Shown here: positions 1 to 40,142 of the stretch, piece after piece
Numbering within the stretch: the stretch's first letter is position 1
Layout: every line of letters begins with the position of its first letter
IMG/VR virus record: IMGVR_UViG_3300046167_000798
DNA: 64,000 nt
From: a virus
Lineage: Duplodnaviria > Caudoviricetes
Strand: one strand, 5' to 3'
Program-made: the position numbers and the translations under genes
The notes under the pieces: model-generated
The model's database searches: none
The model's input: the letters and a program-made list of their open reading frames with translations, nothing else
What the model was told of the DNA's origin: nothing

Positions 1-1199
1 TGAATTTAAACTTCTATACGTTGAAAAAAACTTCATATACTTTTCTATCTTTCTCAAAGTATGAAATATCTAAATATCCTTTCAACAATCTAAAACTTAA
101 AAAATCAGGATATCTTAAGTAAGAAGTATCAAGTATTATTGGAGAATTCCAATATCTTTCAGTATTGAAAGTGTTTTAGTTTGTGTTGATAAATTTTTCT
201 AACTAATTTTTCATAGTTGAATGGAGAAAATATATTGAAAGTTGACATTACAACAATAGTAACCTTTGGTAACTTTTCTAGTATCTTATCTATATTATCA
301 AATAGTTGTTTAAAATCTAAACCTGTTCTGATAAACTCTGCTTGTTCTCCATATGTATCAACTGAAGTATATATAATAAATTCTTTTACTCTTTTTTCAT
401 TGATTATTACAGATGCCTTTTCAATCAATCTATCTATTAGTTTATCATCAACACAAAGATTACTATTAATAGAAAGTTTTAATTTTTTATTTGGTGTTTC
501 GGTTTCTATTATTTTATCTAACACTTTAAACGTATCTTTTGATAAAAGAGGTTCACCACCTGTAATTCTAAAAGTATCCATACTCTTATATAATTCAGGC
601 CACCATTTCCAAAATGCCTCCACATAAGGATTGTGGTCTTTTTGAAGAATCGGCACCATATCTTCTTTTTTTAGTTGTTCTAATGAATTAAATCCATCAC
701 CAGTAGAAAACTCTCCATGTTTTTTCATCTCCTCTACCCACTTAGAAGAATATGATGGGCCACAATACCCACATTTAAAATTACAAGTATTAGAAAATGA
801 TGCCTCTACATACTTAGGTAAATAATCAGCTTTCCAATCTATATTTTTAATTTCTTTAAAATACGGTTTTGACCAATCTTCCTCTGATTTAAAAACTCTA
901 TCAGAATATGAATTAGAATTATCTTCTACTTTCCAACAATAACCACATTCTTTTGGTCTTTTGTTTTCCAACATTTCTTTTCTAGCTTTTTTCTTTTGAG
1001 AACTATTATGAAGAGCTGTTGGATTTCTTTGTAATTCTCTTAATCCTATTTTATGAGGTGCAGGATGATGACAAGAATGAGTAGAACCATCATGTAAGTG
1101 CATTGTAACTTGTGTCCATTTTGCTAAACAAAATCCACAACCAACCGAATCTAAATTCTTTTTAGTTTCTTCAAAGTTATTTCCGATAACTTTACTCAT
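1..1199 (-). CDS. Radical SAM protein with N-terminal twitch/SPASM-like Cys cluster; runs off the window edge after apparent frameshifts near 165 and 55
   Basis: CNFKCGYC (CxxxCxxC), ITGGEPLL, N-terminal CLAKW..SCHH..CGYCW. The called ORF stops at 159, but removing one T gives HFNTERYWNSPIILDTSYLRYPDFL, continuing toward the edge. Confidence 0.85.
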
Positions 1200-1900
1200 T
1201 TTTTAATATTTTTTATTAACAGTTCAGACCACAATTTATGACCATCTGATAACCAATGGTTACCTTTACTTTGTGATACTTTATTTTCAAATAAATAATC
1301 AACCATATTTTCATCTATACAATTATTTGTATATTTTTTTATTGAATAACTATTATTAAATGTATCTGATATAAAATATGAAATATTTAAGTTTTCTAAA
1401 AGTAAAACTATATATTCAATTAATCTTTCATTCTTATAAACAAGTTCATAATCGTTTAAGAAAAAATCTCTACAAATTGAATGCCATTCTTTAAATTTTT
1501 CAATAGATGTACTTTTAAAATTTTTAGTAAAAAAATAATCTCCATGTGCATCATAACTTGTATAATTTATGTTGATAAGATTATCTTTAAAGGAATGTAG
1601 TTTCCTAGATTCACCAGATAAATTTATTAGTACAAATTTTGGATAATTATCAGTATTTTTTATATAATCAATGATATCATAAATAATCTTTTCATTTGAG
1701 TTTCCTTCACATCCAATATTTACATAATCTAAATTTAAATGTTTAGATATTAAATATGGAAATGTTTTATCATATCTATATTCATATATGGATTTTTCAA
1801 CTTTAGGATTATGTCCATCTTTATATAAATCTAATCCTATTTCTTCTTCAATTTCCCATCCTATTGAATGTGAACATCCTGATGATAACAAGTAACTCAT
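1196..1900 (-). CDS. SGNH-hydrolase-like protein (paralog 1)
   Basis: SGCSHS block I, IGCEGNSN block II, C-terminal GNHW..GH; similar to 48792..49769 and 56781..57542. Confidence 0.5.
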   Translation of the reverse strand: MSYLLSSGCSHSIGWEIEEEIGLDLYKDGHNPKVEKSIYEYRYDKTFPYLISKHLNLDYVNIGCEGNSNEKIIYDIIDYIKNTDNYPKFVLINLSGESRKLHSFKDNLININYTSYDAHGDYFFTKNFKSTSIEKFKEWHSICRDFFLNDYELVYKNERLIEYIVLLLENLNISYFISDTFNNSYSIKKYTNNCIDENMVDYLFENKVSQSKGNHWLSDGHKLWSELLIKNIKK

Positions 1901-3345
1901 AACTTAATATTTATGAATTTTGCCTTAGGTGTAATTTCTTCTATACTAACTAATTCATAATTAAGTGAGTTCATTCCATCAGATTTATAATCCCAAGTAC
2001 CACCTTGCATTTCCTTTACAAATCTTCTTTCATTTCTTGCAGTAGTTTCTCCTTTTGCCCAAACATCTTTACCATGTTCATTTTTTACCAATCCTTCATC
2101 TTTATGGTCTAAACAATACATTCTACCCTCTACTCTATGTGGTACAACTGTGTATGGTATTTTAATATCATCTTTATTAAATTCACAATTAAAATTTATC
2201 CCATCGTTATCATTGTCGGATTTATCCACCACTAAACCATCTTCAAAATCATAATGAAGGGATAACCCATCATCTGAATAATCTTCATGTAAAGTACTAA
2301 CCTCATCTGCAGTTAATGCTCTATTCCACATTTTTAAATCTGCAATATCTCCTTTAAACCATTTAGATGGGTCATTATCTGAAACTGATGTTGTTGTTCC
2401 TAAATAATAATCAGTATTACCATATCTTTTTAACATACCTTCAAATTCAAGAGGTGAATGTGTACCAGTTCCCCATCGTGCATCTGATTCTTTTCCATTC
2501 ATATACAAGTGAATATTATTTTCATCAACTACTAAAGTAATCCAACTCCATTGGTTTTCATATCGCTTCATCCATGAATATAAATGTTTTCGTGAATTAT
2601 TCCATAGTTGAGATGTATATGCTCTTGAATTATTATAACTCAATCCATAATCATATCCTGGTCTACGAAGTATTGGATATTCACAAAATCTCCTATCCAT
2701 ATCACCAACTAACCAAACAGGTACTTTTTCTTCTTGTTGGTGTGCTCTAACTAATACTGAAATTGTATGTGAACGAGATGTTAAATTTCTAAGTTTTCGT
2801 GTACAAGGAATTTGTACATATGAATTTTTACCATTAAATGAAATGTAGTTTTGTGTATTATTTTTAAAATCTAAATGGGTTTGATTGGCATATCCTTCCA
2901 AATTACATCTCCAAAATAAATCATCATCTTCCATACCCCAATCCCAATAATCATTACTGTATCCATTGGTTTTCTCAACTTGTTCTTTTGAAAATACAAT
3001 TGCTCCTCCAAAATATTCTTCATATTTTAGTTGGTAGTTCATTTGTGAAATATTAGTTGCAATATGTCTTGGGTTTTCTTTTGGAAAACTATAATCTGCC
3101 CCACCACCTTCTTCAGGTATCATATCGATATCATGCCAAACAACATAATCACATCCATCTTCAAATGCATACTTTGCCGCAATGTTTTTTGTTGCTCCTC
3201 TGTTAAATAGTTTATCATCAACTTGATGTCCAAAATAGATATGATAATCTATACCCTGTCCATCAAGATATTTACCAATCTTTGGTATAAACTCTTTTAA
3301 GTGAGCTTCTCTATTTCTATATGGAACACAAACTCCTAACTTCAT
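1897..3345 (-). CDS. GT7 (beta-1,4-galactosyltransferase-like) glycosyltransferase with inserted LamG domain (paralog 1)
   Basis: VPYRNRE, FNRG, WHDID (DxD), YFGG, NGYSNDYWDWGMEDDDL; then LamG motifs (FNGKNSYV, LYMNG, FKGDIADLKMWNRAL, HYDF); GT7-like C-terminus DGMNSLNY. Confidence 0.85.
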   Translation of the reverse strand: MKLGVCVPYRNREAHLKEFIPKIGKYLDGQGIDYHIYFGHQVDDKLFNRGATKNIAAKYAFEDGCDYVVWHDIDMIPEEGGGADYSFPKENPRHIATNISQMNYQLKYEEYFGGAIVFSKEQVEKTNGYSNDYWDWGMEDDDLFWRCNLEGYANQTHLDFKNNTQNYISFNGKNSYVQIPCTRKLRNLTSRSHTISVLVRAHQQEEKVPVWLVGDMDRRFCEYPILRRPGYDYGLSYNNSRAYTSQLWNNSRKHLYSWMKRYENQWSWITLVVDENNIHLYMNGKESDARWGTGTHSPLEFEGMLKRYGNTDYYLGTTTSVSDNDPSKWFKGDIADLKMWNRALTADEVSTLHEDYSDDGLSLHYDFEDGLVVDKSDNDNDGINFNCEFNKDDIKIPYTVVPHRVEGRMYCLDHKDEGLVKNEHGKDVWAKGETTARNERRFVKEMQGGTWDYKSDGMNSLNYELVSIEEITPKAKFINIKL

Positions 3346-3752
3346 AGTGTATCTGCAATTAGTTTTTTAAATTTGGTTGTACTCCAACCATGGTCTCTGT
3401 TTAAATAATGAATTGGTATATCTAATTCGAAACCTGTATATGTTTTACCTCGATAATCATCTCCTAAGAATCTGATATCTGGTGATAATCTTTTTAATAA
3501 ATCTACCAATTCTTTTTCATAAGTATAATATGCAATTCCATTTATAAATCTGATTGATGTTAGGATTTCTGTTCTTTCTTCTTTAGTAAGAATTGGTTTC
3601 AGTTTATGTGGTCTTTCTATTGATGGGTCTGTATGTAATAAAACTATAAATTGTTTACAATATGATTTACATTCTTTAAACATTTTTATATAACCTGGAT
3701 GTATTACATCAAAGTTTCCAGCAATTACTCCTACATCGTATAATGGCTTCAT
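3342..3752 (-). CDS. Cytidylyltransferase (TagD/CTP_transf_like family)
   Basis: AGNFDVIHPGY (HxGH-like, here HPGY), ER..IL, GDDY, RDHGWSTT. Confidence 0.85.
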   Translation of the reverse strand: MKPLYDVGVIAGNFDVIHPGYIKMFKECKSYCKQFIVLLHTDPSIERPHKLKPILTKEERTEILTSIRFINGIAYYTYEKELVDLLKRLSPDIRFLGDDYRGKTYTGFELDIPIHYLNRDHGWSTTKFKKLIADTL

Positions 3753-5200
3753 ATCTCTATCGATAGTTTAGTTACTAGTTCGTTTACATCTATACTAATT
3801 TCTTCATATCTTAAAGTATTTAATCCTTCTATTCTAAAATCATCTATATCATTTCTAACTTCATTATAATACTTTATTTGGTTTTTTCTAGTTTCTTTAT
3901 GTATCCATTTATTACCAGTAGAAGAGTTAGTTTTATGTTTCAATGATTTAAAACGAGAATTTCTACGATATGGCTTTGGTAGAAATGTTTTAAACGATTC
4001 ATTTGTTTTATATAAATATATATTGTTTAAATAAACATCATATTTTCCACCCAAATCAATTGAAGTAGTTGATGATGAGGTCTGTGGTAAAATCTGAGTA
4101 TATAAAAATTCACTTGATTTGAAATTACCAAAGTTTCTAAGTTTTGGTTTTGTTGGATTTTTTGATATTTCAATTATCTCATCATCAGTAAGAGCAATAT
4201 CGTATATCTCGATACCAGATATTAATCCATAAAAGAAATCTTTATTTGTTGGTTTACCATTTCCAATTCCAACATATATTTCATCAGATGATAATTGTAA
4301 TATTTCATTATTCATTTTTTCAATACCAACCAATTCACCATTCATGTAAAATTTTAATGTATCTGAGTTTTCATAAACCATTGTTAGATGTACCCATCTT
4401 TCACCAACAACTTCAGTTGCAACAGAATATGGTTTTTTATCTGAATCATAAGCCTGACAGAAGAATCTACGAAAGGAATTGTAAAATAATCCAATGTTGT
4501 ATCCTGGTATAGATACTATTGGAAATTCATCATAATCTTTATTTTCACTTAAACTTATATCACTTGGTTTTACCATTACTGATATTGTAAACTCATCTTC
4601 AAGTAAATGTAATTTTTTATTTGATGAAAATTTTATAAAAGAATCGTTTCCATCAAATTTAAAAGATTCAATTTCTCTAATATTTTCATCTCCCAATGAT
4701 TCACTATCTAATTCCAAATTAGATTCAATACATCTTATTAATAAATCATCATCTTCAAATCCCCACCCCCAATATTCATTAGAGAACCCATTGATGGTTT
4801 TAAAATCTTCTTTAGTAAACATAGTTACTCCACCAAAGTAATCAAAAAATGTTGTTTCGTAATCGTGTTCTTGTAAGTGTGTTGCTAAATGTAGAGGTTT
4901 ATCTGAATAAGAATAATCTACATCTTCAGGTAACATATCAACATCATGAAATACAAAATAATCGCACCCTTTATCTAAGGCATACTTATATCCTGCATTC
5001 AGAAGCTTACCTCTGTTAAAAGGTTTATCATCTGCCTGTTCAATGATGAAGATTTCGTAATCAATATCCTTAATATAATCTTTCATATGAGATAAGAACC
5101 TTTTCAGTTGAGTTTCTCTATCTCTATATGGAACTATTATACCAAGTTTATGATTTACTTTCTTCTCCTTGAGTTTCTGTATTCTCTTGGATTCTTTCAC
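3749..5200 (-). CDS. GT7 glycosyltransferase with inserted LamG domain (paralog 2)
   Basis: IIVPYRDRE, PFNRGKLLNAG, FHDVD, YFGGV, INGFSNEYWGWGFEDDDL; LamG (FDGNDSFI, WVHLTMV, FYMNG, FYGLISGIEIYDIAL); C-terminal EGLNTLRY. Confidence 0.87.
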   Translation of the reverse strand: MKESKRIQKLKEKKVNHKLGIIVPYRDRETQLKRFLSHMKDYIKDIDYEIFIIEQADDKPFNRGKLLNAGYKYALDKGCDYFVFHDVDMLPEDVDYSYSDKPLHLATHLQEHDYETTFFDYFGGVTMFTKEDFKTINGFSNEYWGWGFEDDDLLIRCIESNLELDSESLGDENIREIESFKFDGNDSFIKFSSNKKLHLLEDEFTISVMVKPSDISLSENKDYDEFPIVSIPGYNIGLFYNSFRRFFCQAYDSDKKPYSVATEVVGERWVHLTMVYENSDTLKFYMNGELVGIEKMNNEILQLSSDEIYVGIGNGKPTNKDFFYGLISGIEIYDIALTDDEIIEISKNPTKPKLRNFGNFKSSEFLYTQILPQTSSSTTSIDLGGKYDVYLNNIYLYKTNESFKTFLPKPYRRNSRFKSLKHKTNSSTGNKWIHKETRKNQIKYYNEVRNDIDDFRIEGLNTLRYEEISIDVNELVTKLSIEI

Positions 5201-5414
5201 TACCTCTTTCTGGTCTGTTTGTTGTTCCTACTGTTTTAGCTTTTGCAATCTGATAGAATTCGTTCAAATACCATTCCAAACGTTCCTGCCACATATCTGC
5301 ATCTAGTTCATAAACCCAATCGTTTATATCACCAATTGAACCAGCTATTGATTCAAGAGCTTTAACCCCTCTTTCTTCGAGTGATTTATTGTTCGTTGTC
5401 TCTTTCTTTGCCAT
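5148..5414 (-). CDS. Hypothetical small phage protein
   Basis: Open 88-aa ORF in the co-directional array; plausible helical protein. Confidence 0.6.
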   Translation of the reverse strand: MAKKETTNNKSLEERGVKALESIAGSIGDINDWVYELDADMWQERLEWYLNEFYQIAKAKTVGTTNRPERGSERIQENTETQGEESKS

Positions 5415-5943
5415 AATTGTAATTTAGTTTTTTGTTGTAAATTAATTCTTGTTTTAGTTTATCAAATATAAAACCTTCTAATCCTTCTTTATCAATAGGG
5501 AATGAAGTTTCTTCTATCCAATCTTTTAATCTTTCGGGTTCCCATTTTAAGTTTTCTAACTCATCATCTATTTTTTGAGGCTCCCATTGTTTAGTATCTA
5601 TTTCTGCATTTATTTCTTGTAATCTATATTCTATTTTTTCTTTTTCTACTTTTAAATCATCTAAACGAAATTTTATATCATCTCGTTTTACAGTTTTCAT
5701 TTTAATATCTTCATTGATATCATCAATAGTAGTTTGTTTATCATGCCATCTTGCAAAATATTTTCCTATATTTGCAGTTTTTGAGTTCCTATTTCTTAAG
5801 AATAGTGTTTCAACTATTAATATAATTTTTAAAAAAATTGATTTATCTTGTTGACCTGGTTCTGTTAAATCTTTTAACTGAGTATCGATATCTTCAAGAT
5901 GTCTTACAACCTTTTCGTTATGTAACAATTCTAATAAGTTCAT
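5386..5943 (-). CDS. Hypothetical coiled-coil protein
   Basis: 185-aa ORF with heptad-like charged pattern, overlapping its neighbours in operon fashion. Confidence 0.55.
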   Translation of the reverse strand: MNLLELLHNEKVVRHLEDIDTQLKDLTEPGQQDKSIFLKIILIVETLFLRNRNSKTANIGKYFARWHDKQTTIDDINEDIKMKTVKRDDIKFRLDDLKVEKEKIEYRLQEINAEIDTKQWEPQKIDDELENLKWEPERLKDWIEETSFPIDKEGLEGFIFDKLKQELIYNKKLNYNYGKERDNEQ

Positions 5944-7378
5944 AATTTTTTTTATTTTGTATATCTAATATACTGTATTTTAAAGTATTTAATCCTATTT
6001 GTTTATAATCTAAACTATTAGTAACAACATCGTGAAAAAAAATATCCGCATTTTCAGTTATATCAGGATTATAATCATAGTATTTTTTTATAATGTTACT
6101 ATCACCCTTATGTACCAATGATTTATATTCCGAATCTAATCGTATTGGTAAATATATTTCATTTGGAGTATATGTTATAGTATTATTTGATAACTTACCA
6201 TATATTTTTAAATGATTTTTAAATTTTCCAGAATCAAGTATAAGTGTATTTTTATATGTAGAATTATAATTTAAATTTATAGATGGAATAATTCCATATT
6301 TTGATTCAATATCATCTAATGATGAATTTCCTTTGTTATATAAAAGAGTAATGATATCTGAAGAAATACATAAATCAAAAGAAAGTATATTTGAAATAGA
6401 AAGAGATGTTTTATCATCTGATATTTTTATACAATGTTTTCTGTAATCATATATTTCAAAATCTTCTTTTAATTTTATTTCTTTGGTTTTGTTATTTATT
6501 GATAATCTTAAAGTTTTATCAGTAGCATCATATGAGTAAACACAATGATTCCATCTATTTCTTGAATACGATAATATAACCTCATTGTGATTATTATTAA
6601 TATCCCAAATCTGTGCAATTAGTTCGTTTCCATTACTAAGAAACAATCCACTATCACATCCTTCAAAAACAAATAAGTTCTTTTTCGGTTGTCTATTTGT
6701 ATCATCATTAAACCAAAAAGATATACTAAATGAATCTGTTAGCATTTTTTGTGATAAGCTGTTTAATGTTCCATAAATATAATCAGATTTTCCAAATTTA
6801 TTACAATGTATTTGTTGAATTCTTTTTTCTGCAGATGGAGATACTTTTTCTATCCTATATGGAAGAATATCTAATTCATCATAATTAGAGTAAACATTAT
6901 TTAAATCATAGAATTTTTCTAAATAAGCACCACTTCTTTGTAATCTATAAAGTAAATCTAAATCTTCAAAACCATAACCCCAATATTCATTTGAGTATCC
7001 ATTAGCATTTTCAAAATCTTCTCTACTGATAACGATAACTCCTCCAAAGTATTGTGGATAAGGTAATTCACCTCCATGTGCTTCTACATTACTTGCTAAA
7101 TGTGTTGGTGATTCAGGATAACCATAATCACACTCATCATTCATTGGCAACATATCTACATCATGAAAAGCAAAGTAAGTATATTCTTCTCCAACTTCTT
7201 TAGTAACTACATTACATAGTTTACCATAGTTAAAGGGTCTATTATCTGTTTGTTCTGCGATAAAAATAGTGTAATCGATTCCCTTATCTTTGAGGAATTC
7301 GTACATATGAGGAACAAATACATCTAAGTGTTCTTGTCTATCTCTATATGGAACTATTATTGCTAACTTATCTTTCAT
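5918..7378 (-). CDS. GT7 glycosyltransferase with inserted, divergent LamG domain (paralog 3)
   Basis: AIIVPYRDR, PFNYGKLCN, FHDVD, YFGGV, ANGYSNEYWGYGFEDLDL; LamG-like FSISFWF, WNHCVYSYD; C-terminal IGLNTLKY. Confidence 0.85.
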   Translation of the reverse strand: MKDKLAIIVPYRDRQEHLDVFVPHMYEFLKDKGIDYTIFIAEQTDNRPFNYGKLCNVVTKEVGEEYTYFAFHDVDMLPMNDECDYGYPESPTHLASNVEAHGGELPYPQYFGGVIVISREDFENANGYSNEYWGYGFEDLDLLYRLQRSGAYLEKFYDLNNVYSNYDELDILPYRIEKVSPSAEKRIQQIHCNKFGKSDYIYGTLNSLSQKMLTDSFSISFWFNDDTNRQPKKNLFVFEGCDSGLFLSNGNELIAQIWDINNNHNEVILSYSRNRWNHCVYSYDATDKTLRLSINNKTKEIKLKEDFEIYDYRKHCIKISDDKTSLSISNILSFDLCISSDIITLLYNKGNSSLDDIESKYGIIPSINLNYNSTYKNTLILDSGKFKNHLKIYGKLSNNTITYTPNEIYLPIRLDSEYKSLVHKGDSNIIKKYYDYNPDITENADIFFHDVVTNSLDYKQIGLNTLKYSILDIQNKKNYELIRIVT

Positions 7379-8221
7379 TTAGATTTTTACTATAACATTT
7401 GAAAGTTCATTCCACTTTGTATAATCAAAGTAAGAATTATCTTCCATTTTTTCAAACATAAATTCAGGATTATTTATATCGATTTTCCAATCGTTTACCT
7501 GAATTCCTCTGTACATTTTTTTGTATTCCTTCCAAAAGGAATAATCTTTTTTTGTTTCAGATACTTCTTTTAATCTTTCAAGAACTGTCGAATCCCACTT
7601 GAAGTGATGAACTTGGATAAATCCTTTTTCAAGTGGATATCTTTTAGGATGATTCCATCCTCGTTCTCTCCAAGTATCCGTATCACCAATCACAGCAAAG
7701 TGTTGACCAGGTGTTACATCCACAGAACCTTTCATTACACAACATTTGTTTGGCATCGCTCCACTCATAGGATATCTAAAAAATCCTGCAAGTGGAAACG
7801 ATTTCCAAATATTAGTTTCTTTTGTTACCAAAGGAAACTCTCCATCCTCTCCTATCCTATCGAGGAATCCTCCTGTGATGAACTCCCATCCATTCTTATC
7901 ACAATCTGAAATCATCTCTCTAATATCAGCTGGATAAACATGAAGTTCATCATCGTCCGAAACCACCCACCATTCATCGGGTTTAGTTTGCTTTACTTCA
8001 TTATATAATTGAGTAACTCGTTCCCAATTAAATTTTTCTTCTGTTACTATCTTGTGGGGTTTAATACCAAGATTAATTACATCTTCTAAAATACCATCTA
8101 AGGTATGTTGTCTGTAAACTACTACATAAATTTCATCTACAATATCTTTGTAGTGATTTATCATATGTGGTAGAAGTGTAGTGTTGTGTCCAACAACTGT
8201 AACCAAATTTACTTTTTGCAT
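7379..8221 (-). CDS. GT2-like (GT-A fold) glycosyltransferase
   Basis: LLPHMINHY, WWVVSDDDE (DxD), C-terminal VHHFKW; pattern of Glyco_tranf_2_4/GT92-like proteins. Confidence 0.65.
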   Translation of the reverse strand: MQKVNLVTVVGHNTTLLPHMINHYKDIVDEIYVVVYRQHTLDGILEDVINLGIKPHKIVTEEKFNWERVTQLYNEVKQTKPDEWWVVSDDDELHVYPADIREMISDCDKNGWEFITGGFLDRIGEDGEFPLVTKETNIWKSFPLAGFFRYPMSGAMPNKCCVMKGSVDVTPGQHFAVIGDTDTWRERGWNHPKRYPLEKGFIQVHHFKWDSTVLERLKEVSETKKDYSFWKEYKKMYRGIQVNDWKIDINNPEFMFEKMEDNSYFDYTKWNELSNVIVKI

Positions 8222-8988
8222 CTTTGTAGAATTGTTAGACCTGTTGATGCTGGTTTAGATTTAAATATACCATTATTAAAAAAGTTGAAAATTTCCCAAT
8301 CACTATCATCACTCAGTTCTTTTATTAATTTAGAAGGGCCGTTGGTTATTTCTTGATGGTCATCTTTTTTTATTTCATCTGTAACTATTAATTCTTTTTC
8401 AAATGATTCATCTGTATCGTGTATTGATATAATACCATTTGGTGAAAGTAGTTTAGAATATAAATCAAAATCTTGTTTTACATCTTTATAAGTATGTCCA
8501 GCATCTATATGTAAATAATCAATTTTAATATCTTCTTTAACGAAAAAGTTATAATATGCATTTTCAGTTGTTTCTAAAATTACTCTTGGAAAAAATGTTT
8601 TTCTAAAAAATGAATCCTCATTAATCCAATCAGTATTACCACCAACTCCATTAGAAGCATCTACTAAGTAAGTTGCTCCTATATCTCCCCAATTATAATC
8701 TCGGTTACCTTCAAATATTTGTGAATCATATAAATCAACTCTTGCCTGTGTCATTATTCTTGGAATAAATCCACCACCACTTCCTAAACATACACATACT
8801 TTTGCTCTCATGTAATGTATAATAGAATATATTAACAACCCATCACCCAAAGATAAATCAGTTGCACCATGTGTCCATCTATATGGAACTTTTTTTAGTT
8901 CAATATATTCCTTTTCATTAGTGTCGTATTCTTTAGATTGATTGTGTGTAAAAAAATCTTTTATAAAGTCAAGATTTAGAAGTGTCAT
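8209..8988 (-). CDS. Class I SAM-dependent methyltransferase (Methyltransf_24-like)
   Basis: VCLGSGGGF motif I, IDYLHIDAGHTY, LSPNGIISIHDT. Confidence 0.8.
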   Translation of the reverse strand: MTLLNLDFIKDFFTHNQSKEYDTNEKEYIELKKVPYRWTHGATDLSLGDGLLIYSIIHYMRAKVCVCLGSGGGFIPRIMTQARVDLYDSQIFEGNRDYNWGDIGATYLVDASNGVGGNTDWINEDSFFRKTFFPRVILETTENAYYNFFVKEDIKIDYLHIDAGHTYKDVKQDFDLYSKLLSPNGIISIHDTDESFEKELIVTDEIKKDDHQEITNGPSKLIKELSDDSDWEIFNFFNNGIFKSKPASTGLTILQRCKK

Positions 8989-9018
8989 ATCTTTAGTATA
9001 TATATAAATATATAGTTA

Positions 9019-10215
9019 TTATCTTTCCAATAATTTTTTTACAGCAGTTACCCACTTATCTTTATAATCATATCTCATCATATAGGATTTTATTTTATTA
9101 AATTCAAATAATCTTTCTTCGTGTGTATCAAATAATATTTTTTTATAAGCTTTATCAAACTCATTTTTAGTTGATGCTCTATATTTGTAATCTAATTCTT
9201 TTCCCCAATCTGTGTGTATTATTGGCAATTTACCGAAATCAACTGCCTGAAAAATAGAATATCCAAATGGTTCTTTAAAATAAGCTCCATGAAATATTCC
9301 AAAATCTTTTTTCATAAAAGTAGTATGAATACCAGGATTCCATTGAAAAAATTTTGTATTGGGGAAAGTATAAGTTGTTGAATCTTTTAAATTTTGAAAA
9401 TCATAGTAATCAGTTAATACATATCCCTCATATCCATGCATCCAATGAATACACTTTCTTGATTCACATCTTGATGCAAATCCTATCTTACCATTATCCA
9501 TATCTGTATTTAAAGAGAGGTTGTGTTTAAATTCATAATAATTTGGTACTTTGTAAGTATAATTTGGAAACCTATCTACAATCTTAGATGGATTATTTCC
9601 AATCCAAACTCTTTCTTTAAATGTTTCAAAGTAATCATCACAAAATTTCTCATCTACTTCTGTATTGAATTGTAACCTTTTTAATTCAGGATATTCATCT
9701 AATACTTCTTTCATTTCAGTTGGATATGCATGTACAAAACATAATTCAAATTTATCTTCATGTTTCCATATATGTTCTCTTTTGTGATAATGAGAGTGTA
9801 ACGAGTATATATAATCACAATCAACCAACCACTCCTCTGTTATATCTACATCATCAAAATGAAAATGATATTCTAATCCTTCAGGTAAAGAAGATGGATT
9901 AAAATTAGGTGGTCTTTTAGAATCTATTAATAGTTTCCATTTATTTCTACCTTTTAATTTAGTCCATACATTTTGTAAAAAATTATTTACCCAAATATCA
10001 GCACCACCCTTTATTGTATTTCCCGCTCCGGTACATACTAATATTTTTTTAGTAGTTTCTTTTTTATTTTTTACAGGAACAATATGTGAATTTTCTGGTA
10101 ATTCTCTATTGATTATAGAAAGTATTTCTTCTAAATTTATAATATCCCCCATATCGGTAAGATAATTAAATAACCTTTTTTTAATATTTTTTGCTGGAAC
10201 ACCTTTTATTATCAT
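9019..10215 (-). CDS. GT-B fold (GT4-like) glycosyltransferase
   Basis: GGADIW N-terminal loop, IGFASR, EPFGYSIFQAVDFGKLPI. Confidence 0.65.
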   Translation of the reverse strand: MIIKGVPAKNIKKRLFNYLTDMGDIINLEEILSIINRELPENSHIVPVKNKKETTKKILVCTGAGNTIKGGADIWVNNFLQNVWTKLKGRNKWKLLIDSKRPPNFNPSSLPEGLEYHFHFDDVDITEEWLVDCDYIYSLHSHYHKREHIWKHEDKFELCFVHAYPTEMKEVLDEYPELKRLQFNTEVDEKFCDDYFETFKERVWIGNNPSKIVDRFPNYTYKVPNYYEFKHNLSLNTDMDNGKIGFASRCESRKCIHWMHGYEGYVLTDYYDFQNLKDSTTYTFPNTKFFQWNPGIHTTFMKKDFGIFHGAYFKEPFGYSIFQAVDFGKLPIIHTDWGKELDYKYRASTKNEFDKAYKKILFDTHEERLFEFNKIKSYMMRYDYKDKWVTAVKKLLER

Positions 10216-10216
10216 A

Positions 10217-10444
10217 TCAGTCTTTATTTACATTTCGTATCTCTTGACCATCATAGTACATTTTAATTGATTTTACATATCTTTTAAGTTCACTATTATT
10301 TTTATTAAATACAACTATATACTCATGAATGTAATTATCAATATCATTTTGAATTTCAATATTATGAAAATCTTTTTCATTTGTTAAAGTTTGTTCTACT
10401 TTATGACCAAGAGAACACTCTACTATCATTTTTAGTTCTGTCAT
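10217..10444 (-). CDS. Hypothetical protein
   Basis: 75-aa ORF, tight spacing in the array. Confidence 0.55.
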   Translation of the reverse strand: MTELKMIVECSLGHKVEQTLTNEKDFHNIEIQNDIDNYIHEYIVVFNKNNSELKRYVKSIKMYYDGQEIRNVNKD

Positions 10445-10448
10445 TTTA

Positions 10449-10922
10449 TTATGGTTTAGTTGGCCAGGTTATATTAAATGGGTCTGGTTGATTTGTTATA
10501 TCTCTTAGTGATTGTCTATATGTACTCCATTCCTCACTAAGTGTTGGTGTATCCTGTAATGCCATATAATCGGTTTCTGAAAGAAGTTTATCTCTTTTTT
10601 CTCTTAAGTAATCCCACCTACTTTCATTAACCTGTGCAATTTCTTCTGCAGTAAGGTCTACAACAGAGTATGTTCTAACATATACAGAACCACTTTGTGT
10701 TGGTGTTACTTCTATAACATCTTGATATTCACTACAAGATGGATATGAATTTGAATCAACTACACAATAAATACTTGAGGATATTAAGCTTTCAGTAGTT
10801 TCATCATCAAACGAGTATAAATTATCAAATGTACTAGGATTATTCGCAATATATTCACCTATATCGTAAGGATAAATTACATCTGAGCCTGATACTTTTA
10901 AAAAAATATTATTTATTTCCAT
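10449..10922 (-). CDS. Tail fibre assembly chaperone
   Basis: C-terminal RDKLLSETDY...W.TYRQSLRDI.NQ..P..I.WP.KP; directly downstream of the tail fibre. Confidence 0.85.
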   Translation of the reverse strand: MEINNIFLKVSGSDVIYPYDIGEYIANNPSTFDNLYSFDDETTESLISSSIYCVVDSNSYPSCSEYQDVIEVTPTQSGSVYVRTYSVVDLTAEEIAQVNESRWDYLREKRDKLLSETDYMALQDTPTLSEEWSTYRQSLRDITNQPDPFNITWPTKP

Positions 10923-10944
10923 TATTACTTTTTATATTATATTA

Positions 10945-13900
10945 TTACCATGAGTTTCTACCACCATCATCATGTCCTACTATAATCCAACCACCTTCAC
11001 AATTTTTGGTAGTATTCCCATTCCTAAGAGTTTGTTTATTAAAGATAAATTGAACACAATGTCCACCACTTAAGGTGTACCATCCGTTATTATCTCCTTC
11101 TCCTGATAACCCTTCTATATATGCATTTCTACCATGGTTAGTGTTGAATATATAGACTACCGTACCATCAGCTATATCTTCAACATCATAAATATCAGTA
11201 CTGTATTGATAATTTCGTGCTGCTTTTGGAACAGAACTATCATTACTTCCGTTAGTAAATTGTCTATGTGGAAGTGCATAGTACTGACTTGAAGCTGAAG
11301 AACCAGGAGATAATGTAAAGAATGCACCTTTCATTGGATTTATATATGATGGACTAGTTGAACTCCCACCACTTGATGGAATACTATATCTCCTCATTTC
11401 AGGTCCACTGTAAAGTTGAGGTCTTGCCAGTCCATAAAATGCACTACTTCCTCCATAATCTTGGCCTAAGATAGTACGGCCATAGAAATTAGCTCTACCA
11501 GTTGATGTAATTGTTGAATCATCTTTATCATCTTGATTAAGAGAAACTGTTCCTCCCTCTACTTGTAAAAGTGTAGAGGTATAACTACCAGGTGATACTC
11601 TATTAATTTTTACATACTGGTCTGAGTTTGTTACGGCCTGGAATCCCCCACCTGATAATTCTACAAAGTTTGATGGTTGTGCAAGTGTAAATGATTCATC
11701 AAACCCACTAACTGCTTCTGCACGTTGTGTGGAATTTTGAACATATGTAGTGGTGGAGTTAGTACTAGTTCCATCTAATAAGTATTTTGTTCCTGTTCTT
11801 GCCAGAACTTTTGATTTATGTATAAATCTATAATCTCCTGTACTTGTAATATTAATAGTAGAAGTAATTGGTGTGGCAGAAGCATAATGATAACTGTTAG
11901 CAGATGTAGTATATCCTGAAACTGTTTGCCAGTCATAATTATTTGAATTTCCGGTTGCCGTATAATAAGTACCTATTGTTGTTGCACCTCGTGAGTACGC
12001 ATATCCTAATTGAATCTCAGAAACCGTATCCCATGTACCTGAATTATCTTTCTGAAGACATAAATAAACGTAATGGTAAGTATATGCCGCAGATGCATAA
12101 GATTGATAATTGTAAGTAGGATATGGTGGAACTAGGTTTCCAAATGGACTTCCTGTTGTTACTGAAACACTCGGTGGGCTGGTATTTAATGTCCAAGTTG
12201 GCATAGTTGTCCCACCACTATATAAATCAGATAATTGATACTCACCTGTTGTGGAAATTGTTATATCAGTACTATCTGGTGTACTAAAAGCTGTTGCTTC
12301 CCCTTGTGCACCTGTTCCACTATTTGAAGATACATACGATGTAGCGGGTATTGAAGAACCAGGTTGATTACTATTGTAACTAGCAATGTAAATATTTCCT
12401 GCACCAGCTGAAGTTAAAGTATCATCTGCATTAATTTGTGCTTTAAGTTCATTACTTGAATTAAATAATTGAATCTTCTTAGATGTTGGATTTAAAATAA
12501 TTCTACTATCAACATCTCGAAGTTTACCTTCATTTTCAACAGTATCAACAACCCAGCTACCAAGAATTCCACTTTGTATATTAAATGAACCTGAAATGTT
12601 TGCATCTTGTGCTGACATGTTTCCATCTGAATCTACATGGAATTTAGGATTTCCTTCTGTTGGTACACTTAATGTACCACCAATTACAGAACCACCTGAT
12701 AGAGTTCCTGTAAATGTACCACTACCATTAACAATCAATTCATCTGCAGAAGCATCCCAAGTAAGTGCACCTCCTGTTCCTCCAAGGAAAAAATCACCAT
12801 TATTGGCCATGTAGGTTGTAAAATTACTACCATCATGATATCCTACAAATTGTGAAGTTAAATTTAATCCTGCAGCGGCTGTATTTGTTGCCAAAGCAAA
12901 TGCATTTGCACCACTTCCACCAAATGCATAAGATGTTGGATTTTCCAAACCACCTGTTGTTGCATTAATTGCATTTACACCACTTTGTGCATTACTAACC
13001 GCGGTATTTAATGAACCGGTTGCAGTATTTAATGAACTTACACTACTATTTAATGAACCTGTTGCACTGTTAAGAGAATTTAATTGATTTGCAGTTTGAC
13101 CTCCTGTTATATTAATAGTACCTGTTACAGTTAATTTTGCTTCAGAAGCATCCCAAGTAAGTGCTCCAGATGTTCCACCAAGGTAAAAATCACCACCACT
13201 ATCCATGTAAGTTGTGAAATCACTACCATCATGGTATCCCATATATTGTGAAGTTAAATTTAATCCTGCGGTGGCTGTATTTGTTGCTAGTGTAAATCCA
13301 TTCCCACCAAATGCATAAGAACTTGGATTTTCTAAACCACCTGTTGTTGCATTAATTGAATCTACACCACCTTGTGCATTAGTTACGGCGGTATTTAATG
13401 AACCGGTTGCAGTATTTAGTTCTCCTAAACTAGCTTCAAGTCCTTGGCCAGAGGTTAATGTTATTGCTCCTTTTATATCTAATGTCGAACCATTCCATTT
13501 TAAATGATTTGAACCACCTTTTAAAGATAATCTGTAACTTGGAGTTCCACTATTATCATGGTTACCTATAAAAATACCATCTACATCATATCCTTGGTTT
13601 CCTGCAGTACTACTTTGTCCTATTGAAATGTATGGATTATTAGTACCACCTGCTAAAGTAATATTAGCTGCAGAAATACCTCCACTATTGTTACTACCAA
13701 CATTTAATGTATTTTGAACAAATGAATCTTCAAACAATCCTATCTTTGCTGCCACAAAGAAATCTTGTGTTCCTAAACTTTCCCATTTATTTGCACTTGA
13801 TTGATGAGGTGCACCATTAGCAACATTACCAGTAGCAGAAGTATGACTTGATTTAACTGCATAATATTCATCATATGGTGCGTTACCACTTGATGACCAA

Positions 13901-16900
13901 AGTACTACATCTCTTCTTCCACTTGCTCCAGTCGAAAACTGATATGCTCGGCTATCTTCCCAAACTCCTGTAAATACTACACCTGGTCCATTTGTTCCAA
14001 CAACGGCGGTTGTGACTGGGTGATTAAATTGTTTACTACCAGCATTACCTGAACCATCCTTATAATCAATAGTATATGTTGTTGTAAGTCCACCTGGATT
14101 ACTTGCTGAAGAAGGTTGTGATGGTGTTAAAACTCCTGCTGAAGCTTCTGAACCATTTGTTATACTTGAGTTGATTTTAAATTGTGAATTTGATAATGTT
14201 GCACTACTAAGTACCGCGGTTAATGCCGAACCAGTTTCTTGAGCAGTTATGGTAATATTAGATACACTATCAAAAGTATCTCCATTATTTACATCTCTTA
14301 TAAGATTTTGAGTAAATAAACTTGGAGTTATATCTACTGCATTTGCACCATCTTGTCCAACAGTACCATCTTCACCTTGAATTGATTTTGTTAATGTTTG
14401 AGTAGTTGTTAAACTAAAAGCCGTTCCATCTAATCTTTGACCCGATATTGTATATGTTATAGTTGCCTGATTTGCAGTGAAAGCACTATGGTTACCAATT
14501 ACACAAGTTGTTGTATCTAGTCCTTGACTTGCAGTTCCTTCAGTTAATCCACTTTCATTAGAAATAGAAACACCATATTTTCCTGCAGATACAGTACCAG
14601 TTGTAAATGTTAAAGCAGTTACTCCTTCAAACACTTTAATGTTTGTACCACTTCCTGCAAAAGAAGTTGGTGTTCCACTAGGATTACAAGTAAAAGAATG
14701 ATTTGAATTATCATTAGATACTTGAATACTATCTAAACCTTCTTTTGATTTAGTTAAAGTTTGTACACTTGTTAGTGAAATTGCATCACCATTTAATCTT
14801 TTACCAGTTATTGTATATGTTATAGCTACTGTATCTGTACCATCAACCATTGCAGAATGAACACCAACCACTGCATCATTTGTTGAATCAGTTATAGTAC
14901 CAACTGTAATTGTTGAAGTGGGTGATTGTGAAGTTGCAACTGTCCAATGACCAGCAGTTGAACCATCATTATCATAATCTAATTGAGTTGCTCCTTCAAA
15001 TAAAGAAAGTGTAGTTCCACTATTTGCATAATCTAAAACTTCTCCACTTGAAGATGCTGGTAATGTATGTGATGGATTTGAACTAATAAGTGTTAATCCA
15101 TCTGTTCCTTCTTTTACTCTTACAATTCTTACTTCATCAGTAAAATCACCATCTTCACTAGCAGTTACAGAAAGTACAACTGAGGTATTTGAACCAAAGT
15201 TTGTTGCTGATAATGCTCTTGAATCACCTGTACCAGTTAGGGTTACCGAAGGGTCTGTATTGAATGTAGAGGAACCTGATATATTTTGTCTTATTGCAGT
15301 AAATGAAATTGATGATGGGGTTACTGTTCCATCTAATGCTTCAACAAATACTTGTGCATCATTTGTTAATCTTACACTTCGTGCATTTGTTCCATCTCTA
15401 CCATCCGATACTATAAAGAATGTTTCAGATACAGATGTTGTTTTACTTGTATTTGGGTCAACGAAAGTAGCATTAACAGTTAAGTCTTTTGTAGTTGTTG
15501 CAGTTGAAGAACCTAATGTAATACTTCCACCATCCCCATCGTTTGCAGTTAAGGTTATTTCTGAATCTCCTGTTGCGGTACTAATCTTCATTTTATCAAC
15601 AGTACCATTAAAACTTGGAGTAATCAATGCACTCTTTTGATACTCAGTTCCATTTGAATCAAAGAAAGAAGCAGTTAATGGTAAAGTTGCTGGTGTAAAT
15701 GAATTAGTAAGTCCTCTATTTGTATGTAATGAATTTGCTAAGAATGTTCCTCCACCTAAACCATCAGTTACATCTAATAAAGCAATAGTATCTAATAATG
15801 TACCATCATCTTCTTTAAGTGAAATTAATTTTGAACCACTTATTGCAGTATTAGCAAATACAGGATTATAAGTTACACCATTTCCACCATCACTAATACC
15901 GGTCATACTTGTAGTTAGTAAAGTACTTCCACTATAAAGTTGTGCATCTCCTTGAGCAGAACCACTTACATCAAATGAACCTGTACCATCCAATCTTACT
16001 ACTTGTAGTTGTAACGTACCTTGGTTATTTTTTATTTGTGTTCCATTTATTGGTTTAATGATAAATCGTGGTCTTGTATCAAGGCCTGGTTTTGTAAATA
16101 TTAAACTTTCTTGGTCACTATCTAGTTCATTATTTAAATTAACATTATTATCAGATACTCCTACTCTAAAAGTAAATGGAGTACTTGGAATTGTAGTTGG
16201 TGCAGTAAATACTCTACTCGTATGTTGTGAACCAGTTGAATCGTTAAAAGTAGTATCATCGACAAAACTACTATCTCCTCCTGTAAATTTGTAGTATGGG
16301 TCATTTATAGTAGATGAACCTGAAGCAATTAATGTTACTGTTGATGGAGTTGGGTTTGTTCCATCTGCATTATATTGTATAGTATTAGGACTTATAAGTA
16401 ATGTAACACTACGAGCATTTGTTCCATCAACACCAACTTTAGATACACTTACATCAAATCTTACTAATTTATTTTGTACTAATGTTCCTTCGGAATTTAC
16501 ATAATCAATTGATGCACTACCAATTGTTCCATTATATCCATCGTGAGTACCATATGTTGGTGTAATTATTTCATTAGAATTTGAACCTGAACTTACTGAG
16601 TTGATTTCAAATTTATAAGCTTCACTCAATCCTCCACTTAAACCACTTTGATAACTATATTCAGTCCCCACCTTCTTGTACCACAACTTCTATTGTTTGT
16701 GGAACTTCATATCCACTTGAACCAGAGTTTATTGTTTGAGAAGTTGGTGATGTTTTTGTTAAAACATTTGGTACTGCCTTTTTTGATTTTGTATAAGATA
16801 CAACCTTTTCAAATGATTGTGATGTTGTATTATCACCTGCAAGATATTCAATATTTAATGTTAACGAACCACTATCTTTACTAGTTTGAAATGCAGATAT

Positions 16901-23801: not shown

Positions 23802-23820
23802 AATTACACTTTTAACAATA

Positions 23821-26172: not shown

Positions 26173-26204
26173 ACAAAGGTTTCTCCTCTATATAAATATA
26201 TTGA

Positions 26205-26236
26205 AATAAAAAACCCCACTCGTGGTGGGGTTATTT
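26205..26236 (-). terminator. Rho-independent terminator
   Basis: aaccccac-tcgtg-gtggggtt stem with a U-tract on the minus strand. Confidence 0.75.
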
Positions 26237-26255
26237 AAAATTATAAGTTTATAGA

Positions 26256-27485: not shown

Positions 27486-27500
27486 TTTATTTTCCCCTTA

Positions 27501-28128: not shown

Positions 28129-28206
28129 AATTAAATTTTCCTCTTGTTATTCAATATATAAATATAAGTATTTTATAAAAATATATTATTTCTAATCTTT
28201 TATTCG

Positions 28207-33495: not shown

Positions 33496-33520
33496 GTTTA
33501 TAAATATCCTACCCTACTTT

Positions 33521-35359: not shown

Positions 35360-35365
35360 AATTTA

Positions 35366-36607: not shown

Positions 36608-36611
36608 CTCT

Positions 36612-39697: not shown

Positions 39698-39700
39698 ACG

Positions 39701-40132: not shown

Positions 40133-40142
40133 TTTTTACCCC

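Follow-up and report, generated by a model that had tools for sequence, protein, structure and literature searches.

The question raised by the DNA analyzed here is what a phage glycosylates when it carries, directly behind its tail fiber genes, a compact block of genes for glycan synthesis and tailoring. The block occupies positions 1 to 10215 on the minus strand of the window, by which we mean the whole 64,000-nucleotide (nt) stretch analyzed from the IMG/VR record IMGVR_UViG_3300046167_000798, a virus of the Caudoviricetes (Duplodnaviria). Its genes abut or overlap by a few bases, and all noteworthy open reading frames (ORFs) of window positions 1 to 19465 lie on the same strand. The evidence supports a block that looks co-transcribed and forms a conserved glycan-synthesis and tailoring unit behind the fiber genes. 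Our leading answer, which we hold tentatively and as something short of probable, is that the block glycosylates virion proteins, most likely the fiber.

RESULTS AND DISCUSSION

A block of glycan-synthesis genes behind the tail fiber genes

A preliminary description of the window, made from the sequence letters, had named nine gene types in this region. All of them were found, co-directional on the minus strand and abutting or overlapping, as were the five glycosyltransferases that it had counted, one of them GT-B/GT4-like, one GT-A/GT2-like and three of family GT7. The extent given there was too small: two further genes belong to the block, which runs past the window start, where the radical SAM (S-adenosylmethionine) gene reaches the edge. 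That the block follows fiber and chaperone genes was upheld for the chaperone by PHROG and Pfam matches, and the fiber is called from its size, composition and position. The features are as follows (lengths in amino acids [aa]).

1 to 1199, minus strand: N-terminal-twitch radical SAM enzyme, frame-broken and leaving the window start (NF033640, 284.8 bits against a cut-off of 170)
1196 to 1900, minus strand: possible SGNH/GDSL-like hydrolase, 234 aa, strain specific (weak, block-I similarity)
1897 to 3345, minus strand: GT7c, with inserted LamG, 482 aa (Pfam 7C, E 1.9e-19; 7N, E 5.5e-16; Laminin_G_3, E 8.7e-15)
3342 to 3752, minus strand: TagD-like cytidylyltransferase with a variant HPGY motif, 136 aa (Pfam CTP_transf_like, E 3.9e-10; PHROG 7878, E 3.7e-33)
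3749 to 5200, minus strand: GT7b, with inserted LamG, 483 aa, GTG start (Pfam 7N, E 1.4e-23; 7C, E 5.3e-21; Laminin_G_3, E 1.3e-18)
4011 to 4019, minus strand: second copy of the promoter-like motif ATATTTATA, inside GT7b and about 260 nt before the cytidylyltransferase; position conserved in relatives
5148 to 5414, minus strand: conserved small helical protein, 88 aa, always between the GT2-like gene and GT7b (no family matches)
5386 to 5943, minus strand: coiled-coil protein, 185 aa, variable among relatives (weak SMC/Rad50 coiled-coil matches only)
5918 to 7378, minus strand: GT7a, with an inserted LamG-like domain, 486 aa (Pfam 7N, E 1.1e-22; 7C, E 5.1e-18; Laminin_G_3, E 7.7e-7)
7379 to 8221, minus strand: GT-A fold glycosyltransferase, GT2-like, 280 aa (motif and the N-terminal half of an AlphaFold2 model)
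8209 to 8988, minus strand: class I SAM-dependent methyltransferase, 259 aa, a conserved core member (Pfam Methyltransf_24, E 5.7e-11)
9003 to 9011, minus strand: promoter-like motif ATATTTATA within ATATATTTATATA, about 14 nt before the methyltransferase start
9019 to 10215, minus strand: GT-B fold glycosyltransferase, GT4-like, 398 aa (AlphaFold2 model and Foldseek)
10217 to 10444, minus strand: 75-aa ORF, function not assigned (no family matches; not found in relatives by tblastn)
10449 to 10922, minus strand: tail fiber assembly chaperone (PHROG 4912, E 1.6e-20; Pfam Phage_tail_APC, E 4.9e-14)
10945 to 19465, minus strand: putative tail fiber, ORFs 16661 to 19465 (934 aa) and 10945 to 16686 (1913 aa) (size, composition and position)

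In the order of transcription, the two fiber ORFs are followed by the chaperone, the 75-aa ORF, the 398-aa GT-B protein, a 30-nt gap, the methyltransferase and the 280-aa GT2-like protein, and then by GT7a, the coiled-coil protein, the 88-aa protein, GT7b, the cytidylyltransferase, GT7c, the 234-aa protein and the radical SAM enzyme.

Three GT7 glycosyltransferases with an internal LamG-like domain

The three GT7 proteins matched Glyco_transf_7N and Glyco_transf_7C with 58.8 to 83.4 and 64.9 to 74.5 bits, respectively (cut-offs of 27 and 23), and the closest solved relatives of all three were the animal beta-1,4-galactosyltransferases (beta4GalT) 1 and 7 (2ae7 and 4irp; E values of 4e-34 to 2e-26). 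The phage genes depart from the compact single catalytic domain of about 250 to 290 aa of the GT7 family. Residues 16 to 163 of GT7b align with residues 64 to 216 of beta4GalT1 (2ae7_A). A second stretch, residues 436 to 483 against residues 234 to 283 of 2ae7_A, is collinear and weak (0.5 bits, not significant alone); we consider it credible because the conserved His and the GLNSL-type tail are present in alignment A3. Since the N-terminal and C-terminal parts of GT7b both align to beta4GalT1, the LamG-like domain is an insertion within the catalytic domain. By these alignments it sits just ahead of the metal-binding loop and is not a terminal fusion. Of the three "GT7-LamG" proteins in the preliminary description, the number and both components therefore stand, and the picture of a LamG domain fused at the end is replaced by that of an insert.

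The ten GT7 paralogs and orthologs of alignment A3 retain DxD, YFGG and a motif of the WGxEDDD type as well as the His and the GLNSL-type tail, and these features are common to the phage proteins and animal beta4GalT. The pattern includes HD(V/I)D, invariant E149, D150 and D152, H422 in at least 90% and a tail of the form G(L/M)N(S/T)L. EDLD replaces EDDD in GT7a, and one GT7 paralog, in locus L013, has no DxD. Unlike the animal enzymes, the phage GT7 proteins have no signal anchor and are predicted to be cytoplasmic, and they carry a LamG-like insert of about 200 to 270 aa where beta4GalT1 has a short stretch before its metal-binding flexible loop. GT7c is the best conserved of the three in distant contigs.

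Polypeptide GalNAc-transferases (GT27) join a GT-A catalytic domain to a ricin-type lectin domain. The logic may be alike, in that a lectin domain belonging to the GT-A enzyme itself steers it toward a macromolecular acceptor that carries glycans already. The comparison is no more than an analogy, since the lectin is of the ricin B type there and LamG here, the arrangement is a terminal fusion there and an insertion here, and the compartments differ. Literature searches for a GT7/LamG combination in phages found nothing.

The radical SAM enzyme and its LamG-like partner

The radical SAM assignment of the preliminary description holds at the level of the family (NF033640), whereas the copy in the window is not intact. 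CNFKCGYC (CX3CX2C) and the N-terminal cysteines are readable in the translation. The ORF in the window has 346 aa, compared with 472 aa in relatives, and is cut by two 1-nt insertions near positions 167 and 49, both of which are absent from DNA contigs of runs X1 and X3, from two other studies. The gene is probably intact in nature, and the window probably carries several single-base insertion or deletion errors or strain variants. Near-identical contigs also differ from the window in one base at 1199, at the start of the radical SAM gene and the stop of the 234-aa gene, and in three inserted bases at 579 to 591.

In relatives, the radical SAM gene has a neighbor encoding a 248-aa protein that proved to be LamG-like, by a protein atlas and then by hhalign against the GT7 LamG inserts (probability 97.9%, E 6e-13, 184 columns). 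In some lineages, a domain of the 248-aa family is fused to the N terminus of the radical SAM enzyme to give 699-aa forms, as found by tblastn. An alternative description of the 699-aa protein, as bearing a C-terminal extension related to the 248-aa neighbor, was discarded: the comparison failed, and tblastn puts the extra domain at the N terminus. Judged by these profile and tblastn comparisons, two unrelated enzyme chemistries, GT7 and radical SAM, carry the same lectin-like module, as would be expected if both must find one large cytoplasmic acceptor.

The number of radical SAM copies in relatives ranges from one or two up to six, the latter as five in tandem and one further on. Five full-length tandem paralogs are present in four loci (L007, 1578 to 8262; L009, 1603 to 8291; L008, 11425 to 18114; L010, 11446 to 18141). 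The tandem paralogs are 25 to 57% identical to the window copy, and the place of insertion in the operon differs between relatives; the tandem cassette therefore appears to be mobile. Among cultured phages, the family was found only in the Ralstonia jumbo phage RsoM2USA and two Vibrio phages. In RsoM2USA (L016, 205711 to 230694), a 45%-identical radical SAM gene lies a few genes from the tail sheath and a GDP-mannose-dehydratase-like gene, all annotated as hypothetical.

Bacterial chromosomes offer a second view of this family, which occurs in 4 to 5 of 401 Bacteroidota genomes, usually in tandem. Two contexts were inspected (L118, G162:C6:33000-52999, and L117, G090:C2:1208000-1227999). One holds a GDSL-like protein, a methyltransferase-GT2 fusion and a GT-C-like membrane protein beside the tandem N-terminal-twitch radical SAM genes, a company that would suit work on the cell envelope, to which we return below. 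The other holds five PhyH dioxygenases, a WelO5-like halogenase, a methyltransferase and a type IX secretion system (T9SS) fiber-like protein with an endosialidase chaperone domain. Both contexts are compatible with modification of a glycan or of a secreted fibrous protein, and neither is decisive.

The second context, with its radical SAM pair amid five PhyH proteins, a halogenase and a methyltransferase, resembles a natural-product cluster and brings in a different explanation, namely that the target is a host or phage cytoplasmic protein, the 88-aa protein or a small-molecule glycoconjugate, with the radical SAM enzyme acting on a peptide as in pathways for ribosomally synthesized and posttranslationally modified peptides. 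Enzymes of the twitch/SPASM radical SAM type mostly mature peptides, the nearest fold to the GT2-like protein is the peptide S-glycosyltransferase SunS, albeit with a low TM-score of 0.41, and a strongly conserved small protein always lies within the core. That protein has homologs at the same position in contigs of 27 to 48% GC, with a common core of about 45 aa. However, its conserved part resembles a helical hairpin, with neither a Cys- or Ser/Thr-rich core nor a leader-like layout; five or more glycosyltransferases together with sugar-nucleotide enzymes point to a sizeable glycan; and the constant fiber or tail neighborhood would go unexplained. We regard a peptide, protein or small-molecule target of this kind as improbable.

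The block is conserved among marine phages

A DNA-level search with GT7b returned 15 IMG/VR loci, 14 of which keep the series GT-B, methyltransferase, GT2-like protein, GT7a, (coiled coil), 88-aa protein, GT7b, cytidylyltransferase, GT7c and radical SAM. In the 14 loci the block lies behind a large fiber-like gene of variable sequence, and the same arrangement was also found in ENA/JGI contigs. Relatives differ in the presence or absence of the coiled-coil gene and in their radical SAM cassettes. Downstream of the point that corresponds to the window edge, they encode the 248-aa protein, a second radical SAM enzyme and proteins of 432 and 453 aa, and further downstream a GDSL-like protein, a DUF5672 protein and nucleoside diphosphate (NDP)-sugar epimerase/dehydratases.

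More distant contigs, of 27 to 48% GC, keep a core of methyltransferase, GT2-like protein, small helical protein, two GT7-LamG proteins and radical SAM; the 248-aa protein, another radical SAM enzyme and the 432-aa protein often come next. Each of them has fiber- or tail-type genes upstream of the core. In a 248-kb phage contig, the core is near a 1288-aa fiber with Peptidase_S74 (endosialidase chaperone), and a baseplate-wedge homolog is also present; in two others it is next to Gly_rich_2 and LamG proteins; and in a 93-kb contig a BNR protein stands beside it, with a tail sheath within the range of the locus. Synteny across related phage contigs, which the preliminary description had proposed as a check, is thus strong, extending over 14 IMG/VR contigs and these more distant phages.

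Prokaryote genomes were scanned, one for each species, and the full GT7 form with LamG was found on contigs carrying the same module. Two of these (L026 and L029) are confirmed phage contigs by a baseplate-wedge or tail-sheath homolog, and several are binned with metagenome-assembled genomes (MAGs) of Flavobacteriales. The remaining bacterial matches have the GT7 catalytic part alone. Relatives of GT7b form 2443 metagenomic clusters (90% clustering). For the radical SAM family, the clusters scored numbered at least 6874, almost all of marine metagenomic origin. At least 14 seawater or virome runs, belonging to 12 studies, contain near-identical DNA.

Among GenBank phages (50,697 records), megablast of the 10.3-kb block and tblastn of GT7b and the methyltransferase gave no matches. 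The nearest virus record (G001) has other parts of the window in common with it and not the block. The baseplate-wedge protein is 38 to 41% identical to those of Microcystis phage Mel-JY01, a 484-kb uncultured phage and Flavobacterium phage immuto; therefore, the phage is not a T4-type pelagimyophage. TAnnTTTG-like motifs and the MAG binning suggest a Bacteroidota host.

Absence of membrane proteins and the case for envelope remodeling

None of the block proteins in the window has a predicted membrane helix, no segment reaching a hydropathy of 1.6. In each of 14 related contigs, the coding strand was scanned over about 20 kb surrounding the core and showed no multi-pass membrane ORFs. The hydropathy method was crude; applied to a control locus from a bacterium, the same script detected a protein with 8 helices. 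The block has no initiating phosphoglycosyl transferase, flippase, polymerase, ligase or ABC transporter, and none was seen in the approximately 20 kb of the 14 related contigs.

The last finding bears on the possibility that the block remodels host-envelope glycans. Soluble phage transferases would then act on undecaprenyl-linked intermediates of O-antigen, capsule or protein glycosylation, which the host would export with its own flippase, polymerase or transporter, and the purpose would be to block superinfection or to keep progeny from adhering to debris. Glycosyltransferase-rich host-recognition clusters of pelagimyophages and cyanomyophages have been interpreted in this way (PMC7029224; PMC12801897), and the Bacteroidota context described above that includes a membrane GT-C-like protein agrees with the idea, as does the general observation that GT4, GT2 and TagD-type enzymes are typical of surface-polysaccharide loci. 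Against it stand the missing membrane and export functions and a promoter type shared with structural genes, superinfection exclusion being expected early. The core is also present in a sheath-bearing contig binned with a Bacillota MAG, where there is no lipopolysaccharide (LPS) O-antigen, although the binning is uncertain. In addition, LamG on cytoplasmic enzymes would fit a soluble macromolecular acceptor better than a membrane lipid. Taken together, we judge envelope remodeling to be unlikely.

A promoter-like motif shared with structural genes

The preliminary description had placed a putative late-promoter motif at 9003. The motif is conserved and of the structural-gene type, and its orientation had to be corrected: TATAAATA is the plus strand, and the coding strand reads TATTTATA within ATATATTTATATA. 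The motif ATATTTATA has 10 matches in the window, all 10 on the coding strand. They lie mostly in short gaps before the fiber, baseplate-region and other structural genes, and one precedes the methyltransferase. This last copy is kept upstream of the methyltransferase in all close relatives, although the spacers differ in length and sequence. For the copy at 4011 to 4019, the conserved position may reflect a conserved peptide rather than a promoter.

A different motif class, CGTATNTTTRY, has 6 matches in the window (0.5 expected), all on the coding strand and none in the block. These CGTAT(A/C)TTT(A/G)(C/T) sites lie on the minus strand at 23820, 49780, 56744, 61269, 61893 and 62405, before nonstructural genes, and include exact TAnnTTTG boxes, which we take to be the Bacteroidota -7 promoter element. 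The motif contexts suggest that the ATATTTATA class is phage specific and structural (late) and that the CGTATNTTTRY class is of the host type (early). A scan for the sigma-70 consensus gave fewer sites than shuffled sequences, no convincing terminators were seen inside the block, and there is no terminator-like site between the fiber and the block. Contigs X15 and X16, from RNA libraries, cover parts of the block and the fiber; timing, strand and level are not readable from contigs, and DNA carry-over is possible.

Two further sequence features were observed around gene starts. Shine-Dalgarno-like GGAG/GGGG stretches precede structural genes (25069 to 40733), and the stretches upstream of the glycan genes (159 to 10215) are A/T only. 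In several relatives (L001 at about 6100 to 6210, L008, L010, L011 and L017) and not in the window, GGGGGT(T/A)(T/A)GGGGG occurs between the promoter-like motif and the methyltransferase start, where it could be a structured leader or a small inserted element.

The GT-B and GT-A transferases

The 398-aa protein had no matches in Pfam, NCBIfam or a PDB profile search. An AlphaFold model built from ten relatives (predicted local distance difference test [pLDDT] score of 77.5) has a GT-B fold of two Rossmann domains, and its nearest Foldseek matches were PimA (2gej, E 1.9e-8), HepE, BshA, WaaG and MshA, at E values of 2e-8 to 1e-5 and TM-scores of 0.5 to 0.6. EPFGYSIFQA is conserved and gives the motif E-x7-Q (EPFGYSIFQ) rather than the E-x7-E of GT4. 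As for the earlier GT4 call, the modeled fold is indeed nearest to GT4 enzymes; membership of the sequence family and the E-x7-E motif were not borne out.

The 280-aa protein matched Pfam Glyco_tranf_2_4 at E 1.7e-4 and 22.4 bits, below the cut-off of 27.5, and a distant ortholog scored 20.2 bits. WWVVSDDDEFH is invariant, including D89, D91 and E92. Only residues 1 to 118 and 160 to 200 of the AlphaFold2 model are confident; Foldseek placed it with SunS (E 8.5e-7), TarP and SpsA, with E values of about 1e-6. The GT2 call is accordingly backed by the GT-A fold and the invariant acidic motif and remains under the Pfam threshold. PDB sequence and profile searches gave nothing useful for the 398-aa and 234-aa proteins, the full-length radical SAM enzyme, the methyltransferase, the GT2-like profile or the fiber.

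The GT-B fold is also where the modification of DNA must be considered, that is, the transfer of glycans to hydroxymethylated phage bases in order to evade restriction. T4-type phages glucosylate 5-hydroxymethylcytosine, and the T4 alpha- and beta-glucosyltransferases are among the GT-B fold matches of the 398-aa protein, at ranks 17 to 27. They match no better than dozens of other GT-B enzymes, however, and DNA glycosylation is not known to involve a GT7 enzyme with a lectin insert, a TagD-like enzyme or a methyltransferase. The single PF00303 match in a 76%-complete relative is closest to ordinary ThyA (E of about 1e-75), with no hydroxymethylase evident. The promoter is of the structural-gene type, whereas enzymes that modify DNA have to work while it is being replicated. 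Viral transferases that attach a variety of glycans to DNA have been reported (Pyle et al. 2024, as cited in PMC12619734). The preliminary description had argued that DNA glucosylation would not account for so many enzymes, and the promoter type, the enzyme families, the number of transferases and the ThyA-like gene of the 76%-complete relative agree in making it unlikely; we consider DNA as the acceptor very improbable.

Activating and tailoring enzymes

The methyltransferase and the TagD-like cytidylyltransferase were confirmed as previously named, by Pfam (E 5.7e-11 and E 3.9e-10, respectively) and, for the latter, by TagD itself (1coz, E 3e-10, full length, residues 10 to 133 aligned). The cytidylyltransferase reached 40.5 bits with CTP_transf_like, for which the cut-off is 21. 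Its gene is confined to the clade of the window. Orthologs keep HPGY and RDHGWSTT, the latter at the place of the RTxGISTT motif of TagD-type enzymes, and in the window and all seven orthologs compared the HxGH signature is HPGY, with Tyr in place of the second His. The score with TIGR01518 was 50.9 bits against a cut-off of 165.4, and the rfaE domain II model scored slightly better, at 58.9. Owing to the variant HPGY and the low equivalog score, glycerol-3-phosphate specificity is not assignable to the TagD-like enzyme.

The gene for the SGNH-like protein is present as claimed, and its SGNH identity is weakly supported by block-I similarity and atlas neighbors. The 234-aa protein had no matches in Pfam, NCBIfam or PDB. 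Its block-I-like GCSHS aligns with GDSWT of a GDSL-like phage protein of the relatives (E 2e-5), and its neighbors in the protein atlas carry DUF6071 or Lipase_GDSL in 10 to 20% of members. The gene was not found in the IMG/VR relatives and is present in contigs of runs X1 and X3.

Outside the block, within the tail and baseplate region, a Nol/NodU-like carbamoyltransferase lies at 43576 to 45285 (PHROG 1601, E 2e-114). It is of the sugar-tailoring type and may belong functionally with the glycan block.

The putative tail fiber

The fiber had no matches in Pfam, PHROG or PDB families, and Tandem Repeats Finder found nothing in its DNA. The protein is rich in S, T, G and N, with S plus T at 23 to 26%; other structural proteins are likewise S/T rich. 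Proteins of 1250 to 2410 aa occupy the fiber position in relatives, with 2410 aa in the close ones. At the CCCC run at 16664 to 16667, contigs of four runs (two from DNA studies and two from RNA libraries) have one base fewer, and with one base deleted there, the two ORFs (934 and 1913 aa) become a single frame of 2839 aa, not far in length from the 2410-aa protein of close relatives. The fiber is probably a single gene of about 2839 aa that is split in the window by a homopolymer error or a variant.

Two proteins of the structural region, encoded at 25069 to 26172 and 26256 to 27485 (367 and 409 aa), have similar C termini and look paralogous; neither belongs to a Pfam or PHROG family, and the only relatives of the 367-aa protein are distant ones in Flavobacterium phage immuto and Microcystis phage Mel-JY01.

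What is the acceptor?

The results above establish which genes are present and in what conserved order, which folds and motifs their products have, that a promoter-like motif is present, that membrane proteins are absent and that the LamG-like domains are related. From these we infer the donors, the sequence of steps, the late timing and, most of all, the acceptor. Transcription would enter from the fiber and chaperone genes and at the promoter-like site at 9003. Nucleotide-activated donors would come from the host and from the sugar-nucleotide enzymes encoded downstream, outside the window, and the TagD-like enzyme would supply a cytidine diphosphate (CDP)-activated polyol phosphate, e.g., CDP-glycerol. 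The GT-B (GT4-like) and GT-A (GT2-like) enzymes would start or extend the chain, and the three GT7 enzymes would add residues, with LamG, beside the acceptor loop, holding the macromolecular acceptor. The methyltransferase and the SGNH-like protein would tailor the sugars, and the twitch radical SAM enzyme with its LamG-like partner would edit the bound glycan or its carrier. The acceptor would be the phage's own fiber, or other virion proteins, during synthesis, and the module would act late and wholly in the cytoplasm.

Virion glycosylation leads for us on the basis of the common promoter type, the fiber or tail neighborhood that recurs in unrelated lineages, the solubility of all the enzymes and the lectin-like domains that some of them bear; mycobacteriophages and giant viruses provide precedents. 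The preliminary description had proposed an oligosaccharide on the fiber or capsid or, alternatively, remodeling of the host surface; the conserved glycan block after the fiber, the structural-gene motif and the synteny support that interpretation and suggest, rather than identify, an acceptor. A more specific form of the idea is a LamG-addressed toolkit, in which the GT7 and radical SAM enzymes would all dock on the nascent tail fiber, build a glycan there and then edit it by radical chemistry in place. We regard this form as rather doubtful.

Several points weigh against virion proteins as the target. Assigning the acceptor to a virion protein is an inference, and the "late" class is drawn from motif sharing. 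Soluble GT4 and GT2 enzymes normally use lipid-linked intermediates at the inner membrane. Host export machinery could carry an altered glycan out, so the missing phage membrane proteins are not decisive. No S/T-rich C-terminal tails, the type of acceptor found in mycobacteriophages, were seen on the structural proteins. The cultured relatives immuto and Mel-JY01 gave no tblastn match to GT7b or the methyltransferase; therefore, the tested genes would be dispensable for this type of virion. Finally, fiber-flanking regions are hypervariable hot spots in marine myophages (PMC7029224), and the adjacency may reflect accumulation of accessory genes.

Relationship to known systems

The nearest published description is the host-recognition cluster of marine myophages, a variable region rich in glycosyltransferases and radical SAM genes beside fiber genes that was read as changing the host O-chain (Zaragoza-Solas et al. 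2020, PMC7029224). The block, as a variable glycosyltransferase- and radical-SAM-rich region adjoining fiber genes, falls under that description. Both are large and contain glycosyltransferases, LPS-type sugar genes and radical SAM cassettes, and in both relatives differ by gain or loss of the cassettes. In contrast, the phage studied here is not a pelagimyophage, its nearest isolates being Mel-JY01 and immuto; GT8 is the commonest family in the published clusters; and neither the conserved core nor LamG-bearing GT7 and radical SAM proteins are described there.

In mycobacteriophages, capsid and tail-tube proteins have been shown to carry glycans on their C-terminal tails (Freeman et al. 2023, as cited in PMC12619734 and PMC12801897). 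According to those accounts, soluble phage glycosyltransferases stand beside structural genes, as they do here, and the addition of glycans to virion proteins, which takes place in the cytoplasm, was shown. They describe one to few transferases and Gram-positive-type hosts, whereas the present phage has five transferases in 10 kb and more downstream, of varied families and accompanied by radical SAM, and the evidence consists of genes.

Virus-encoded soluble enzymes also make the capsid or fibril glycans of chloroviruses and mimiviruses, and A064R of chlorovirus PBCV-1 combines two transferase domains with a methyltransferase domain. Such systems are virus encoded, cytoplasmic and independent of a membrane carrier, and they use several transferase families and sugar-nucleotide enzymes to place complex and methylated glycans on structural proteins; these are features of those viruses that we propose for the phage. 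The likeness is one of description, and those are giant viruses of eukaryotes. We know of no GT7-LamG or twitch radical SAM components in them.

The general phenomenon is thus already published (PMC7029224), and for mycobacteriophages it is established that phage enzymes glycosylate the virion. Within the reach of our literature and database searches, the conserved core, GT7 with an internal LamG and the LamG-partnered twitch radical SAM enzyme are undescribed so far.

Implications

The module is widespread, abundant and unstudied. On either of the two readings that concern the phage or host surface, it brings new architectures: a lectin domain set within a GT7 enzyme and a lectin-like partner for a radical SAM enzyme. 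If the block rewrites the host surface, it would be a large serotype-conversion system of a lytic phage. If the LamG-addressed toolkit is real, it would be the first tail fiber glycosylation pathway in phages of Gram-negative marine bacteria and, for radical SAM enzymes, the first demonstrated case of action on a glycan attached to a protein; the turnover of radical SAM genes, from one or two to six paralogs, would then tune host range or particle stickiness. If virion glycosylation is correct, sugar-coated phages would be common in the ocean and not peculiar to mycobacteriophages and giant viruses, which would bear on host range, adsorption to particles and gels, grazing, virus decay and the reading of viral proteomes.

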